From the IMG/VR virus record IMGVR_UViG_2534681604_000007: a DNA stretch of 5,101 nt; one strand, 5' to 3'. Below are positions 1-5,101 of the stretch, in pieces; position 1 is the first letter of the stretch; each line of letters begins with the position of its first letter. This DNA is from a virus (lineage: Duplodnaviria; Heunggongvirae; Uroviricota; Caudoviricetes). The position numbers and the translations under genes were made by a program. The notes beneath the pieces were generated by a model. That model saw only the letters and a list, made by a program, of their open reading frames with translations. It was not told the origin of the DNA and ran no database searches.

Positions 1-1074
1 TCATTTGTCGATTTCAATTTTGTCCCATTCCCGTCCACGGCTGTCCCTATACCGCGCCGCCATTGAATCTGATTTATGCCCGAGAAGACGTTGAGCAAAC
101 TTATCGCCAATCTGGTTCCGGTATAGCCTCGCCGACAGGCTACGCAGTTCATGGAATGTTGGCGGGTCTCCATCAAATGAGAGTCCAGATGCATTTCTCG
201 CCTTTGTAAAATACTTCGATACTGTTTTCGGGGAAAGTGGTTCGTGATGCGTTGATGCAATTATTGTTTCACTGCCGCTGGCCTTCCTGCATTTCTGTAG
301 TGTATCAGCCAATGAGATATTGAGCGCGTCAATCCTTAGCGTCAGCGGAATGGCGAGCTTAGCCCCTGTTTTACCCTGTTCAATGTGAAGATGGTTGTCG
401 TTTATGTCTGACCATTTCATTCTGCACAAATCGCCGACTCTCTGCCCTGTAACGACAGCCAAATCCATCGCCAGTCTTAGCCAGATTGGGAGAGGTTCGG
501 CTGCATGGTAAATCTCGACATACTCATTAGCTGTCAGCCTTGAGCGCCTTACTTCTGACTTTGCTGTGCGGGTTGCTGTTACCGGATTCGTTGCTACATG
601 CCCCTCGGCTATTGCCTCACGAAAAACGTCAACAAGGGTTGACCTGATTAATTTTGCGGAAGCCGCTTTACCTTCTGCTACGTAGGTGTTTAGCATTGCT
701 GCCACCTCTTTCGTTGATATGTCAGCGAGCGGTTTGTCCGGCAATTTTCTTCGGATTGCCCTGATTTTGCTGGCGTAGTCGAGTAGAGTTTTCGGCCTGA
801 TACCCCTCTCGCTGAGGATTGTTTCATATCGGTCAAGCCACGCATGAAGAGTGATTACGTCAGCGCCTTTAATTCTGTCTATCAGTGACTCACGCCTGTT
901 CTCGGATAGTAACTCAATATTGGCCTGAATAGCCTCTGAAACTGCTATCCTTCTGTCTCTGCCTAATCCGAACTCTTTACCCGTCCTTGGGTCTCTGTAG
1001 CAGTAATATCCATTGTTTCTTATATAAAGGTTAGGGGGTAAATCCCGGCGCTCATGACTTCGCCTTCTTCCCAT
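1..1074 (-). CDS. int: Lambda-family tyrosine site-specific integrase (356 aa)
   Basis: Translation starts MGRRRSHERRDLPPNLYIRNNGYYCYRDPRTGKEFGLGRDRR, as I recall for the lambda Int arm-binding N-terminus. Catalytic residues are present in the expected contexts: R in GQRVGDL, K in EQGKTG, H..R in FHELRSLSARLY, H in LLGHKSD, Tyr in AARYRD. ATG at 1074..1072 lies inside xis, as in lambda; TGA at 3..1. Confidence 0.96.
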   Translation of the reverse strand: MGRRRSHERRDLPPNLYIRNNGYYCYRDPRTGKEFGLGRDRRIAVSEAIQANIELLSENRRESLIDRIKGADVITLHAWLDRYETILSERGIRPKTLLDYASKIRAIRRKLPDKPLADISTKEVAAMLNTYVAEGKAASAKLIRSTLVDVFREAIAEGHVATNPVTATRTAKSEVRRSRLTANEYVEIYHAAEPLPIWLRLAMDLAVVTGQRVGDLCRMKWSDINDNHLHIEQGKTGAKLAIPLTLRIDALNISLADTLQKCRKASGSETIIASTHHEPLSPKTVSKYFTKARNASGLSFDGDPPTFHELRSLSARLYRNQIGDKFAQRLLGHKSDSMAARYRDSRGREWDKIEIDK

Positions 1075-1270
1075 TTCTGATCCTCTTCAAAAGACTACCT
1101 GTTACTGGTCGATTTAAGTCAACCTTTACCGCTGATTCGTGGAACAGATACTCTCTTCCATCCTTAACCGGAGGAGGGAATATCCTGCATTCGCGCACCC
1201 ATCGACGAACTGTTTCAAGGCTTCTTGGGCGTCGCTGGCGTGCGTTCCACTCCTGAAGTGTCAAGTACAT
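1052..1270 (-). CDS. xis: Excisionase Xis (72 aa)
   Basis: Translation MYLTLQEWNARQRRPRSLETVRRWVRECRIFPPPVKDGREYLFHESAVKVDLNRPVTG..KRIRNGKKAKS matches lambda Xis as I recall it. Its 3' end overlaps the int start by 23 nt. GGAG lies about 9 nt upstream of the ATG at 1270..1268. Confidence 0.95.
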   Translation of the reverse strand: MYLTLQEWNARQRRPRSLETVRRWVRECRIFPPPVKDGREYLFHESAVKVDLNRPVTGSLLKRIRNGKKAKS

Positions 1271-1731: not shown

Positions 1732-2016
1732 TTATTCATTGCTGATATTCACCTTTATCGCGAACACCTTTACCGGTTTATCGCCAAAGTGCGGATGTGT
1801 GATTGTCTTCACTTCATATCCGTCATACGGAACATCAATTCTGCGACTGGAATCGTCGCGCTTCGGATATCCCTTTGTGATAATCAGGCGGTTATACTTA
1901 CGGTTAACGAGGCGCTTTTTCCAGTAGTCATTACACAGGCGATACTCTTCCGTTTTCTCTCCGCGAATCATGGCATCGAAGTATTCACTTTTCACAGCAA
2001 GTTGCAGGTTAGCCAT
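1732..2016 (-). CDS. ASCH-like (PUA-fold) domain protein, 94 aa from the ATG
   Basis: ORF MANLQLAVKSEYFDAMIRGEKTEEYRLCNDYWKKRL...; the RGEKTEEYR segment fits the ASCH GxKxxExR signature. GGGGGA lies 7 nt upstream of the ATG at 2016..2014; an in-frame GTG at 2019..2017 is a less likely start. The ATG shares one nucleotide with the TGA of the upstream TraR-like gene (TGATG). Confidence 0.7.
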   Translation of the reverse strand: MANLQLAVKSEYFDAMIRGEKTEEYRLCNDYWKKRLVNRKYNRLIITKGYPKRDDSSRRIDVPYDGYEVKTITHPHFGDKPVKVFAIKVNISNE

Positions 2017-2237
2017 CACTTAATCCCCCTTTGTTTGCGGATAAGCTCCAGATCTTGCTGGCAACTTGCACAAGTCCGACAACCCTGAATGGCCAGTCGT
2101 CTTCGTTCATCTATCGAATCGCCACACTCACAACAATGAGTGGCAGATACAGCCTGGTGGTTCAGGCGGCGCATTTTTATTGCTGTGTTGCGTTGTAATT
2201 CTTCTATTTCTGATGCTGAATCAATGATGTCTGCCAT
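2016..2237 (-). CDS. TraR/DksA-family C4 zinc-finger protein (73 aa), likely an RNA polymerase secondary-channel binder; same size as lambda Orf73
   Basis: Translation MADIIDSASEIEELQRNTAIKMRRLNHQAVSATHCCECGDSIDERRRLAIQGCRTCASCQQDLELIRKQRGIK has an N-terminal acidic helix and CxxC...CxxC spacing typical of TraR (F plasmid) and lambda Orf73. ATG at 2237..2235, TGA at 2018..2016. Confidence 0.85.
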   Translation of the reverse strand: MADIIDSASEIEELQRNTAIKMRRLNHQAVSATHCCECGDSIDERRRLAIQGCRTCASCQQDLELIRKQRGIK

Positions 2238-2290
2238 CTTCCATTAATCCCTGAATTGTTGGTTAATACGCTTGAGGGTGAATGCGAACA

Positions 2291-2313
2291 ATAAAAAAGG
2301 AGCCTGTAGCTCC
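2291..2313 (-). terminator. Candidate intrinsic terminator between the 71-aa ORF and the TraR-like gene
   Basis: Minus strand: GGAGC-TACAG-GCTCC followed by TTTTTTATT. Short 5-bp stem but a strong U-tract. Confidence 0.4.
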
Positions 2314-2335
2314 ATGATGATTTTGTTTTTCATGC

Positions 2336-2551
2336 TCACCGTTCCTTAAAGACGCCGTTTAACATGCCGATCGCCAGGCTTAAATGAGTCGGTGTGAATC
2401 CCATCATCGTTACTGTTTCGTGGTGCTTCTTCAGTACGCTACGGCAAATGTCATCGACGTTTTTATCCGGACACTGCTGTCTGGCTTTTTTGATTTCAGA
2501 ATTAGCCTGACGGGCAATGCTGCGAAGGGTGTTTTCCTGCTGAGGTGTCAT
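2336..2551 (-). CDS. Hypothetical protein (71 aa from ATG at 2551)
   Basis: ORF MTPQQENTLRSIARQANSEIKKARQQCPDKNVDDICRSVLKKHHETVTMMGFTPTHLSLAIGMLNGVFKER. Its ATG overlaps the TGA of the 27-codon small ORF (ATGA). The track's longer 104-aa version starts at a TTG. Weak SD (GGGG about 10 nt upstream), so coupling is probably needed. Confidence 0.5.
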   Translation of the reverse strand: MTPQQENTLRSIARQANSEIKKARQQCPDKNVDDICRSVLKKHHETVTMMGFTPTHLSLAIGMLNGVFKER

Positions 2552-2631
2552 TGAACAAGCCCCATGTCGGCAAGCATAAGCACGCAGAATATGAAGCCCG
2601 CTGCCAGAAAAATGCATTCCGTGGTTGTCAT
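2548..2631 (-). CDS. Unlisted 27-codon small ORF encoding a hydrophobic, probably single-pass membrane peptide (MTTTECIFLAAGFIFCVLMLADMGLVQ)
   Basis: Hand translation of the minus strand: GGAGG-CTGC-ATG at 2631..2629, followed by 26 sense codons and TGA at 2550..2548. The ATG overlaps the methyltransferase TGA (ATGA) and its TGA overlaps the ATG of the 71-aa ORF (ATGA). Codons are common E. coli ones (CTG, GCG, GGC, TTC, GCC, GAC). Below the ORF-track length cutoff. Confidence 0.45.
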   Translation of the reverse strand: MTTTECIFLAAGFIFCVLMLADMGLVQ

Positions 2632-3185
2632 GCAGCCTCCCGACGGGCAAGAATCCTTGAGCCGAACGCCATCAACTCGCCACGATCAACGGTCGTAAAG
2701 TGGCAGTGTGTACGGGGGTATGGGTGCCAGATAATGAGCATCGAGCCTTTATTATTTCCACTGACGGGTTTCCCGGTGAGTGGGTTAATAAATGCCAGTC
2801 GTCCTGCCGTGATGAATCTGACCTCACTGGCGGTTTGTATCGCTTCATGAAACCATCCGACAGATGTGTCAGCAGGCAATAACATTACACATCCCACACT
2901 ACTGAATTTGTTTTCAGTGGCTGCCTTTTTCACAAAAGGGGAAATATTGCTGTATGGTGGATTCAACCAGACATAACCAGAGGCATATCCCATTGCTTCA
3001 GGCCATGAAGTGGTTAATGTGTTCTGCTCCTGTGAGATAAAAAGCCGACATAGTCGGTTTTTTTCGTTGGCTGCAGCATCAAGTTGAAAATCGAACTCTG
3101 CATTCAGCGCAGCAAAAATCTCTGGTGGTGTGCGCCAGCTGTCGCGATGTTCGGCAGGAGTATTGCTTCCGGTGAAATCAGTCAT
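2628..3185 (-). CDS. Phage Dam-family (T1-type) DNA N6-adenine methyltransferase, 185 aa
   Basis: Translation contains the catalytic NPPY tetrapeptide (VWLNPPYSN) and the N-terminal WRTPPEIFAALNAEFDFQLDAAAN segment characteristic of the small phage Dam family. GGGGGG lies 4 nt upstream of the ATG at 3185..3183; TGA at 2630..2628. Confidence 0.88.
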   Translation of the reverse strand: MTDFTGSNTPAEHRDSWRTPPEIFAALNAEFDFQLDAAANEKNRLCRLFISQEQNTLTTSWPEAMGYASGYVWLNPPYSNISPFVKKAATENKFSSVGCVMLLPADTSVGWFHEAIQTASEVRFITAGRLAFINPLTGKPVSGNNKGSMLIIWHPYPRTHCHFTTVDRGELMAFGSRILARREAA

Positions 3186-3336
3186 ACAGCCCCCCGTTTA
3201 TTATTTATCTCCTCAGCCAGCCGCTGTGCTTTCAGTGGATTTCTGATAACAGAAAGGCCGGGAAATACCCAGCCTCGCTTTGTAACGGAGTAGACGAAAG
3301 TGATTGCGCCTACCCGGATATTATCGTGAGGATGCG

Positions 3337-4017
3337 TCATCGCCATTGCTCCCCAAATACAAAACCAATTTCAGCCAGTGCCTCGTCCATTTTTTCGATG
3401 AACTCCGGCACCATCTCGTCAAAACTCGCCATGTACTTTTCATTCCGCTCAATCACGACATAATGCAGGCCTTCACGCTTCATGCGCGGGTCATAGTTGG
3501 CAAAGTACCAGGCATCTTTTCGCGTCACCCACATGCTGTACTGCACCTGGGCCATGTAAGCCGACTTTATGGCCTCGAAACCACCGAGCCGGAACTTCAT
3601 GAAATCCCGGGAGGTAAACGGGCATTTCAGTTCAAGGCCGTTGCCGTCACTGCATAAACCATCGGGAGAGCAGGCGGTGCGCATACTTTCGTCGCGATAG
3701 ATGATCGGGGATTCAGTAACATTCACGCCGGAAGTGAACTCAAAGAGGGCTCTGGCGTCGTTCTCGTACTGTTTTCCCCAGGCCAGCGCCTTAGCGTTAA
3801 CTTCCGGAGCCACACCGGTGCAAACCTCGGCAAGCAGGGTGTGGAAGTAGGACATTTTCATGTCAGGCCATTTCTTTCCGGAGCGGGGTTTTGCTATCAC
3901 ATTGTGAACCTCTGAAGCGGTGATGACGCCGAGCCGTAATTTGTGCCACGCATCATCCCCCTGTTCGACAGCTCTCACGTCGATCCCGGTACGCTGCAGG
4001 ATAATGTCCGGTGTCAT
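3337..4017 (-). CDS. exo: Lambda exonuclease (Red-alpha), 226 aa
   Basis: Translation [65 protein letters not shown]...GEQWR matches lambda Exo as I recall it. ATG overlaps the bet stop (ATGA at 4017..4014). Confidence 0.97.
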
Positions 4018-4799
4018 GCTGCCACCTTCTGCTCAGTGGCTTTCTGTTTCAGGAATCCAAGAGCTTTCACTGCTTCGGCCTGTGTCAGTTCTGACGATGC
4101 TCGAATGTCGCGGCGAAATATCTGGGAACAGAGCGGCAATAAGTCGTCATCCCATGTTTTATCCAGGGCAATCAGCAGAGTGTTAATCTCCTGCATGGTT
4201 TCATCGTTAACCGGAGTGATGTCGCGTTCCGGCTGACGTTCTGCAGTGTATGCGGTATTTTCGACAATGCGCTCGGCTTCATCCTTGTCATAGATACCAG
4301 CAAATCCGAAGGCGAGACGGGCACACTGAATCATGGCTTTATGCCGTAACATCCGTTTGGGATGCGACTGCCACGGCCCCGTGATTTCTCTGCCTTCGCG
4401 GGTTTTGAATGGTTCGCGGCGGCATTCATCCATCCACTCGGTAACGCAGATCGGATGATTGCGGTCCTTGCGGTAAATCCGGCATGTGCAGGATTCATTG
4501 TCCTGCTCAAAGTCCATGCCATCAAACTGCTGGTTTTCATTGATGATACGGGACCAGCCATCAACGCCCACCACCGGAACGATGCCGTTCTGCTTGTCAG
4601 GGAAGGCGTAAATTTCTTTCGTCCACGGATTAAGGCCGTACTGGTTGGCGACGATCAGCAATGCGATGAACTGCGCATCGCTGGCATCACCTTTAAATGC
4701 CGTCTGGCGAAGAGTGGTGATCAGTTCCTGTGGGTCGACAGAATCCATGCCGACGCGTTCAGCCAGCTTCCCAGCCAGCGTTGCGAGTGCTGTACTCAT
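4014..4799 (-). CDS. bet: Single-strand annealing protein Bet (Red-beta), 261 aa
   Basis: Translation [85 protein letters not shown]... matches lambda Bet as I recall it. ATG at 4799..4797 follows the gam TAA (4807..4805) by 5 nt. Confidence 0.97.
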
Positions 4800-4804
4800 C
4801 CGTT

Positions 4805-5101
4805 TTATACCTCTGAATCAATATCAACCTGGTGGTGAGCAATGGTTTCAACCATGTACCGGATGTGTTCTGCCATGCGCTCCTGAAACTCAACATCGTC
4901 ATCAAACGCACGGGTAATGGCTTTTTTGCTGGCCCCGTGGCGTTGTAAATGATCGATGCAGAGTGATTCAAACAGGTGCTGGGGCAGACCTTTTTCCATG
5001 TCGTCTGCCAGTTCTGCCTCTTTCTCTTCACGGGCGATCTGCTGGTAGTGACGCGTCCAGCTCTGAGCCTCAAGACGATCCTGAATGTAATAAGCGTTCA
5101 T
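4805..5101 (-). CDS. gam: Gam, RecBCD inhibitor; 5' end truncated by the window edge (visible part is the 98-aa GamS-equivalent portion)
   Basis: Translation [95 protein letters not shown] matches the C-terminal 98 residues of lambda Gam as I recall it. The reading frame stays open to the last base of the window. Confidence 0.92.

Follow-up and report, generated by a model that had tools for sequence, protein, structure and literature searches.

The window analysed here is a stretch of 5,101 nucleotides (nt) from a virus of the Caudoviricetes (IMG/VR record IMGVR_UViG_2534681604_000007), the minus strand of which represents the left arm, or exo-xis (early leftward) region, of a lambdoid prophage. 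Between a DNA methyltransferase gene (dam) and orf61, this strand carries an open reading frame (ORF) of 27 sense codons, named ORF27 here, which is present but unannotated in phage lambda. Sequence comparisons suggest, with a probability of about 0.72, that ORF27 is a genuine gene of the pL operon, coding for an acidic, very hydrophobic peptide of 27 residues with a single span, which is likely to reside in the inner membrane of the host. ORF27 is joined to both neighbouring genes by overlapping start and stop codons, its frame is conserved and under purifying selection, its product is strongly hydrophobic, and the rival frames over the same DNA are unconstrained. According to the best-supported reading, ORF27 and orf61 form a two-gene module of the lambdoid pL operon.

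Among temperate phages lambda is the reference, and the function of its exo-xis region, which has been tied to the lysis-lysogeny decision, host cell-cycle effects and the induction of Shiga toxin (Stx) prophages, is still obscure. The interest of ORF27 lies mainly in its being unannotated in lambda and in its confounding the orf61 literature. If ORF27 is a gene, the orf61 annotations of lambda and the Stx phages (61 and 93 amino acids (aa), respectively) would be wrong at the N-terminus and would hide a second gene, and a membrane-active peptide would join the early gene set that more than half of the complete Escherichia coli genomes carry, either as here or in a close variant.

ORF27, its start signals and the encoded peptide

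ORF27 encodes MTTTECIFLAAGFIFCVLMLADMGLVQ. A first-pass annotation made from the window alone had described this ORF as opening with GGAGG-N4-ATG and overlapping its neighbours by ATGA at both ends, and had also pointed to a second ATG in another frame (2617..2615); all of these are present in the sequence as described. The features that bear on ORF27 are the following:

2548..2631, minus strand: ORF27 (27-codon ORF; ATG 2631..2629, TGA 2550..2548), equivalent to lambda complement(30925..31008)
2636..2641, minus strand: Shine-Dalgarno (SD) sequence GGGAGG, 4 nt before the ORF27 ATG, within the 3' end of dam
2628..2631, minus strand: ATGA overlap of the dam stop TGA (2630..2628) with the ORF27 ATG (2631..2629), also the mosaic junction
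2548..2551, minus strand: ATGA overlap of the ORF27 TGA (2550..2548) with the orf61 ATG (2551..2549); GTGA in some relatives
2336..2551, minus strand: orf61 proper, downstream of ORF27, coding for a predicted three-helix protein of 71 aa (PHROG 303)
2615..2617, minus strand: alternative ATG of the 93-aa 'orf61' annotation of Stx phages, judged a non-functional start

The ORF27 ATG is preceded by GGAGG at 2640..2636 and the spacer CTGC. For this start, the duplex with the anti-SD sequence at the 16S rRNA 3' end is predicted at -10.3 kcal/mol in the window and at about -5 kcal/mol in phages that carry orf63 upstream, where the corresponding sequence is GAGAGAG. The start of the 71-aa orf61 has a weak SD sequence (-4 to -4.7 kcal/mol; -4.7 in the window). 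The ATG at 2617 is wrongly spaced from its best pairing, which amounts to -2.6 to +0.4 kcal/mol (-2.6 in the window). Without ORF27, the tightly overlapped operon would hold an untranslated gap of 76 nt. The predicted RNA fold of the region is ordinary (z = -0.44), with no structure to account for its conservation.

The ORF27 peptide has a grand average of hydropathy (GRAVY) of 1.62 and reaches best Kyte-Doolittle means of 2.33 over 19 residues and 2.42 over 21 residues (C6-V26), the usual transmembrane cut-off on this scale being 1.6. The C6-V26 segment has bilayer length (~18-21 residues); its summed value on the Hessa scale is ~0 to -0.1, and -2.2 in the variant from Jouyvirus. T occupies the second position in 14 of the 28 codons. 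When the inner 76 nt of ORF27 were shuffled, 32% of the shuffles remained open, so that the open frame by itself carries no significance. Only 0.025% were open and equally hydrophobic (19-residue Kyte-Doolittle mean >=2.33). Hydropathy and shuffles thus bear out the single hydrophobic, helix-length segment that had been read from the ORF in the first place. In the most divergent copies, from Jouyvirus 4B5 and 1H12, the peptide reads MTTTECIFLAAGFIFCVLMLSGMGLVQ and has kept both its length of 27 residues and its hydrophobic character.

Searches of Pfam, NCBIfam and PHROGs with the ORF27 peptide gave nothing significant. The best family matches, MtrF (E=0.034, below the cut-off) and a PHROG 'membrane protein' (E=0.68), were rejected, as were two 428-aa proteins in the database cluster of the peptide, which are unrelated. 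The profiles of PHROG 303 and PHROG 26061 did not match the ORF27 peptide; only the other-frame 93-aa and 71-aa translations match them.

Selection on the ORF27 frame

Selection was analysed first on 207 loci taken from IMG/VR, from GenBank phages and from genomes, and then on 105 metagenome loci, with 315 related loci overall. All of them were located through a conserved part of orf61, which kept the ORF27 sequence itself from steering the sampling. Each variant allele was counted once, the ORF27 frame comprising 18.3 synonymous and 59.7 non-synonymous sites.

The 207 loci of the first set contained 29 distinct 87-nt haplotypes, 13 of which (184/207 loci) encode an identical peptide; an indel occurred in a single haplotype, from a low-quality assembly. 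Across all loci, ORF27 is free of indels in 313 of 315. Sixteen synonymous and 12 non-synonymous alleles were found in the first set, giving a ratio of non-synonymous to synonymous polymorphism per site (pN/pS) of 0.23 (P=1.3e-4), and third codon positions hold 17 of the 28 variants (P=0.003), the substitutions across relatives having a period of three bases in this frame. All alleles present at six or more loci are synonymous, and non-synonymous alleles are rarer than synonymous ones (Mann-Whitney P=0.004). Most of the amino acid exchanges seen are conservative (T>A/I, F>L, L>F, A>S/V, V>A, I>V). The metagenome loci alone gave a pN/pS of 0.28 (P=0.004), and alleles seen at least three times in the pooled set gave 0.18 (12 synonymous, 7 non-synonymous; P=2.6e-4). 

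As a positive control, orf61 analysed by the same method gave a pN/pS of 0.28 (range 0.24-0.36). The same mutations read in the other two sense frames of the ORF27 region gave 1.02 and 1.25 in the first set, neither being significant. In a six-frame re-run with three added phage records, ORF27 stood at 0.27 (16 synonymous, 14 non-synonymous), the other sense frames at 1.04 and 0.73, and two of the three antisense frames at 0.62 and 1.01. This pattern points to purifying selection on the amino acids of the ORF27 frame only, at a level like that of orf61.

The periodicity of the variants would have another source if a plus-strand antisense ORF at 2564..2698 (44 aa here, MSASISTQNMKPAARKMHSVV...) were the real gene. 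This ORF is open in all upstream contexts and shares the third positions of ORF27, so that it too appears constrained (pN/pS 0.36, P=0.008). The third-position variants that discriminate between the two frames, however, favour ORF27: all four are silent there but alter the antisense translation, and GAC>GAT, which belongs to the four, abolishes the antisense ATG in several loci. Moreover, the C-terminal half of the antisense ORF spans the mosaic junction and is unrelated between contexts, and the ORF runs against the pL transcript. The sole nearby plus-strand promoter-like match (2625..2654, 9/12) is at chance level (2 found vs 1.5 expected) and cannot drive the antisense ORF because it lies inside and downstream of it. 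We consider an antisense gene extremely unlikely.

It is also very unlikely that the region is a non-coding spacer in which recent common descent and sampling noise mimic selection. All copies are at least 92% identical, the independent substitutions are few, and 32% of the shuffles keep the frame open, as such a spacer would predict. Against it stand the clustering of variants at third positions (P=0.003) and the synonymous excess (P ~1e-3 to 1e-4), both of which recur in the second collection and are absent from the control frames on the same mutations, as well as a hydrophobicity far above that of the shuffles.

Mosaic context and the start of orf61

The segment 2500..2680 of the window, which spans ORF27, was matched in 3,070 of 5,426 complete E. 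coli genomes (~57%) at 4,107 places. None of the 11 phage and RefSeq records inspected annotates ORF27. The exact 27-aa peptide nevertheless exists in nr and UniRef as 'hypothetical protein', in some E. coli GenBank annotations (A0A0A2SGE8_ECOLX, 981 contigs), which qualifies its description as hidden. The expectation that gene callers would miss the ORF is borne out, and curators have missed it too. Full-text literature searches for the peptide sequence, the names of ORFs from profiling and work on small lambda proteins or Ribo-RET returned nothing on ORF27.

In lambda, 434, 21 and the Stx phages the gene upstream of ORF27 is orf63 (DUF1382) and not dam. The homology of these orf63-type phages to the window starts exactly at the A of the ORF27 ATG, or 2 nt earlier in the Stx phages. 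Since the homology begins exactly there, dam is a mosaic replacement of orf63 that kept the ATGA junction and brought a much stronger SD sequence. The pairing of a membrane peptide with a methyltransferase, which the first-pass annotation had found worth testing, finds no support as a meaningful link in this comparison: most relatives have orf63 upstream, the constant partner of ORF27 is orf61, and the pairing with dam is best read as an incidental mosaic accident. Among the sampled loci, Dam occupies the orf63 slot (window 2628..3185 vs 1013..1204 of loci L001/L002) in ~15%. The Dam C-terminus ...EAA* and GGAGGCNGC are also present in a DndB-like gene of locus L213, described below.

Homologue searches with the 71-aa orf61 product found only near-identical relatives from E. 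coli. Apparent distant orf61 matches (48-73% identity) were rejected as low-coverage assemblies with indels, a copy disrupted by an insertion sequence, or the alternative mosaic context described below. A scan of species-representative genomes for the region returned almost only lambda contamination, plus Escherichia. The GTDB representative 'genomes' concerned (L214-L227, from Shewanella, Bradyrhizobium, Pseudomonas, Paenibacillus, Oceanobacillus, Kitasatospora and others) hold low-coverage lambda contigs of ~48 kilobases, which are almost certainly spike-in or cloning contamination.

Several observations, besides the constraint shared with the antisense frame, weigh against ORF27 as a membrane-peptide gene. 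The peptide contains no K, R or H and has a net charge of -2 from E5 and D22. It thereby lacks the flanking positive charges that are usual, though not obligatory, for membrane topology, and this lack of basic residues is unusual for small single-pass membrane proteins. D22 is itself replaceable (D>G, D>N), and in three loci CAA>TAA at codon 27 makes the peptide one residue shorter. The selection test rests on ~30 variant alleles, many of them shared by descent. The family is shallow: it is confined to lambdoid phages of Escherichia and never falls below ~92% nucleotide identity, and a distant blastn search against phages found no match to the ORF27 region below 92%. A review of lambda ribosome profiling lists only a 7-aa and a 31-aa ORF as new in this region. 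Furthermore, 13 loci carry orf61 behind an unrelated gene of 251 aa and without ORF27, and therefore ORF27 is not obligatory for orf61. In these loci, orf61 has its own GAGG-N6-ATG and the N-terminus MTIEHNN.... Finally, ORF27 codons 3-7 are missing from Escherichia sp. E1V33 (L213) through a deletion of 14 nt, which puts the ATG in frame with orf61.

The alternative mosaic context comprises L088, L130 (reverse strand 10465..10785), L189 and 10 other loci, and its junction lies 18 nt inside orf61. At the E1V33 locus (NZ_RHJI01000010.1, L213 371..1716) a 355-aa gene of the DndB family (PF14072) is ATGA-coupled to the fusion downstream of it, which encodes 93 aa; the locus holds no other lambdoid genes and may be a captured fragment beside a defence-type gene. 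In the ORF27-frame codons that survive there, two synonymous changes and a single conservative one separate the sequence from the consensus.

The 13-locus context bears on the possibility that ORF27 serves as a relay only, the act of translation carrying ribosomes to the weak orf61 start while the peptide is functionless and degraded. The ATGA overlaps at both ends of ORF27, the weak SD sequence of orf61 (-4 to -4.7 kcal/mol) and the absence of ORF27 where orf61 has its own GAGG-N6-ATG are what a role in coupling alone predicts. A relay would need nothing but an open frame, yet the amino acids of ORF27 are as constrained as those of orf61 (pN/pS ~0.2-0.3). It could also be far shorter, yet the length of ORF27 is unchanged in 313 of 315 loci; its extreme hydrophobicity, matched by 0.025% of shuffles, is kept, and the replacements are conservative. 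We regard a relay without a functional peptide as unlikely.

Three incompatible models of the region are found in annotations, with an orf61 of 61 aa in lambda, 93 aa in Stx phages and Phi24B, and 71 aa. The lambda 'orf61' (NP_040613, PHROG 26061; NC_001416 30839..31024, L002 1185..1370) starts inside orf63, crosses the ORF27 region in another frame, continues through ~23 codons of the 71-aa gene and finishes in a frameshifted tail. Lambda has a run of seven A where its relatives have six (near window 2478..2483), and its 'orf61' ends early because of the extra A; the lambda reference 'orf61' is thus an artefact of this base. RefSeq labels such E. coli copies 'cell division protein ZapA, frameshifted'. 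In Stx phages and Phi24B, a 93-aa orf61 (vb_24B_7c, PHROG 303) is annotated from the ATG equivalent to window 2617, and RefSeq PGAP and the CPT curators of phage 434 give the 71-aa ORF alone. The GAGG-N6-ATG of the alternative context fixes the orf61 start at the 71-aa position.

The view taken in the phage records, namely that orf61 starts at the ATG at 2617 or further upstream (93 aa, or 61 aa in lambda) and that ORF27 is a chance frame, appears highly improbable. Stx-phage, Phi24B and lambda records annotate the long form and PHROG 303 and 26061 are built on it, the ATGA-coupled ATG of E1V33 reads the orf61 frame into a 93-aa product, and AlphaFold places a helix at residues 6-17 of the 93-aa extension. 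The long frame is nevertheless unconstrained over ORF27 (pN/pS 1.02, 0.73, 0.67 and 0.82), and its common polymorphisms are radical (H>Y, G>R, C>R, T>A). The 93-aa start has no usable SD sequence, and in the commonest haplotype, with ACT at codon 4, a TGA directly precedes this ATG in its own frame, which therefore cannot extend upstream. In the AlphaFold model of the 93-aa form, the block-mean predicted local distance difference test (pLDDT) scores are 47 and 71 for residues 1-20 vs 77-90 for residues 21-90, and the extension scores lowest outside the C-terminal tail. A review of structure predictions likewise notes that the N-terminal 23 residues of Orf61 are placed inconsistently among predictors (PMC8614690). 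PGAP and the CPT curators choose 71 aa, the independent 13-locus context starts orf61 at the same site, the 61-aa version of lambda is the product of the extra A, and the E1V33 fusion is a 14-nt deletion in a non-prophage context. A gene read across the region from the ATG at 2617, which had been named at the outset as the finding that would speak against ORF27, is hence disfavoured by its unconstrained frame, the missing SD sequence and the preceding TGA.

For the 71-aa protein itself, RefSeq gives the name 'cell division protein ZapA'. The protein has no Pfam or NCBIfam match, and Foldseek of its model against PDB returned no significant match, neither to ZapA nor to a homeodomain. The name ZapA looks unsupported, and the published homeodomain idea likewise finds no support in the Foldseek comparison of the predicted structure. 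The AlphaFold models, both of this form and of the longer 93-aa one, were only mildly informative.

Possible role and neighbouring genes

Small membrane proteins of a similar kind include KdpF (29 aa), YohP (27 aa), MgtS (31 aa), CydX (37 aa) and AcrZ (49 aa). ORF27 shares with these E. coli proteins the size class, the single hydrophobic segment and the fact of being missed by gene callers, and like them it is recognised by an SD sequence and synonymous-biased conservation. Many of them bind larger membrane proteins, which is also the mode we consider likeliest for ORF27. ORF27 differs in being phage-encoded, in lacking flanking basic residues and in being embedded in an operon by 4-nt overlaps. 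Single-pass inner-membrane proteins of less than 50 aa have been found in E. coli by conservation and ribosome-binding-site models (Hemm et al. 2008, cited in PMC4195576). ORF27 most likely belongs, as a new member, to the known class of small hydrophobic membrane peptides.

Type I toxins (TisB, 29 aa; ShoB, 26 aa; IbsC, 19 aa; Hok, ~50 aa) are, like ORF27, short, very hydrophobic and of helix length, and are often borne by prophages or plasmids and active at the inner membrane. Unlike these toxins, ORF27 has no stand-alone locus and no cationic residues and is coupled into a long early operon. The own promoter and long leader typical of type I toxins are absent, ORF27 being overlapped by 4 nt on both sides in the pL operon. 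As to an antisense RNA at ORF27, a promoter scan gave matches at chance level only, and no Rfam search was made. Stop-start (ATGA/UGAUG) coupling is known from trpE-trpD and trpB-trpA. ORF27 resembles these pairs in its four-base overlaps and the weak SD sequence of the downstream gene, and departs from them in that a whole mini-gene, with a conserved peptide sequence of its own, links two larger genes. The orf61 of lambda and the Stx phages occupies the same DNA as ORF27, and its annotated N-termini are other-frame translations of ORF27. It is distinct from ORF27 in frame and product, and only its 71-aa C-terminal portion, which starts at the ORF27 stop, is constrained.

The published genetics of orf61 offers circumstantial evidence on ORF27. 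The lambda 'orf61' frameshift allele of the Wegrzyn laboratory was made with the primer CTTCATATTCTGTGTG*TTATGC, in which a C is deleted (PMC4195576 Table 1), and delayed phage development after prophage induction (PMC4195576). The deleted C corresponds to window 2580, the first base of ORF27 codon 18, and the orf61 phenotype is thus inseparable from the loss of ORF27. In the orf61 deletions of lambda and Phi24B the annotated ORF is replaced entirely, and ORF27 is therefore lost with it; these deletions raised lysogenisation and host survival, and plasmid-expressed 'Orf61' formed insoluble aggregates (PMC6213356). If ORF27 is a gene, the published deletion and frameshift phenotypes would be confounded, both genes being hit, and the insoluble 'Orf61', expressed from the long frame, may have had a non-native N-terminus. 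As the 71-aa gene of lambda is already broken by the extra A, ORF27 would be at least as good a candidate as the annotated product for the lambda 'orf61' phenotypes.

Among host genes, degP and htpX are markers of envelope and inner-membrane-protein stress. Upon infection with an exo-xis deletion of Phi24B, their log2 changes relative to wild type were -3.0 for degP and -2.4 for htpX (PMC10789677 Table 4). This drop is compatible with a membrane-active exo-xis product, although many genes are deleted in that mutant. degP and htpX were the most reduced host 'chaperone' genes without exo-xis, and the authors linked no membrane product to them (PMC10789677).

The arrangement of overlaps suggests how ORF27 might work. 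Ribosomes ending the upstream gene (dam here, orf63 in lambda) would restart at the overlapping ORF27 ATG, aided in the window by the strong GGAGG, and those ending ORF27 would in turn resume at orf61, which has a weak SD sequence of its own and an ATG or GTG start within the overlap. With a restart at both overlaps, ORF27 would both make a peptide and relay translation into orf61, the relay being a secondary role. The translated peptide would insert into the membrane and may share in the pro-lytic phenotypes credited to 'orf61'; our best guess is an action on a protein of the host inner membrane, which it would bind or perturb soon after induction or infection, and not gross damage to the membrane. 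A more far-reaching proposal is that ORF27, and not the annotated Orf61, is the effector of at least the lambda 'orf61' phenotypes, acting through a specific host inner-membrane protein and giving rise to the degP/htpX signature and part of the influence on lysis-lysogeny and the cell cycle. We regard this as conceivable but doubtful.

The remaining genes and signals identified in the window are:

4805..5101, minus strand: gam
4014..4799, minus strand: bet
3337..4017, minus strand: exo
3182..3346, minus strand: orf60a-like DUF1317 gene
2628..3185, minus strand: phage Dam N6-adenine methyltransferase, 185 aa (Pfam PF05869, E=9e-57)
2299..2313, minus strand: hairpin of the intrinsic terminator t2, ending the orf60a-dam-ORF27-orf61 stretch of the pL transcript (PMC4195576 Table 4)
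2244..2339, minus strand: 31-aa ORF
2016..2237, minus strand: TraR/DksA zinc-finger gene ('orf73')

Beyond orf73, more small ORFs are followed by xis and int. Overlaps of 4 nt join bet/exo, orf60a/dam, dam/ORF27, ORF27/orf61, orf61/31-aa ORF and orf73/95-aa ORF. The ORF at 2244..2339 (29-31 aa, V/M-N-MKSKIIRELQAPFLLFAFTLKRINQQFRD) has a GTGA overlap with the orf61 stop, and the t2 hairpin (2313..2299) falls inside its coding sequence. It shows a mild frame-specific constraint (pN/pS 0.34, P=0.008), is an annotated gene in the records of some phages and probably corresponds to the 31-aa 'orf2313' of lambda ribosome profiling.

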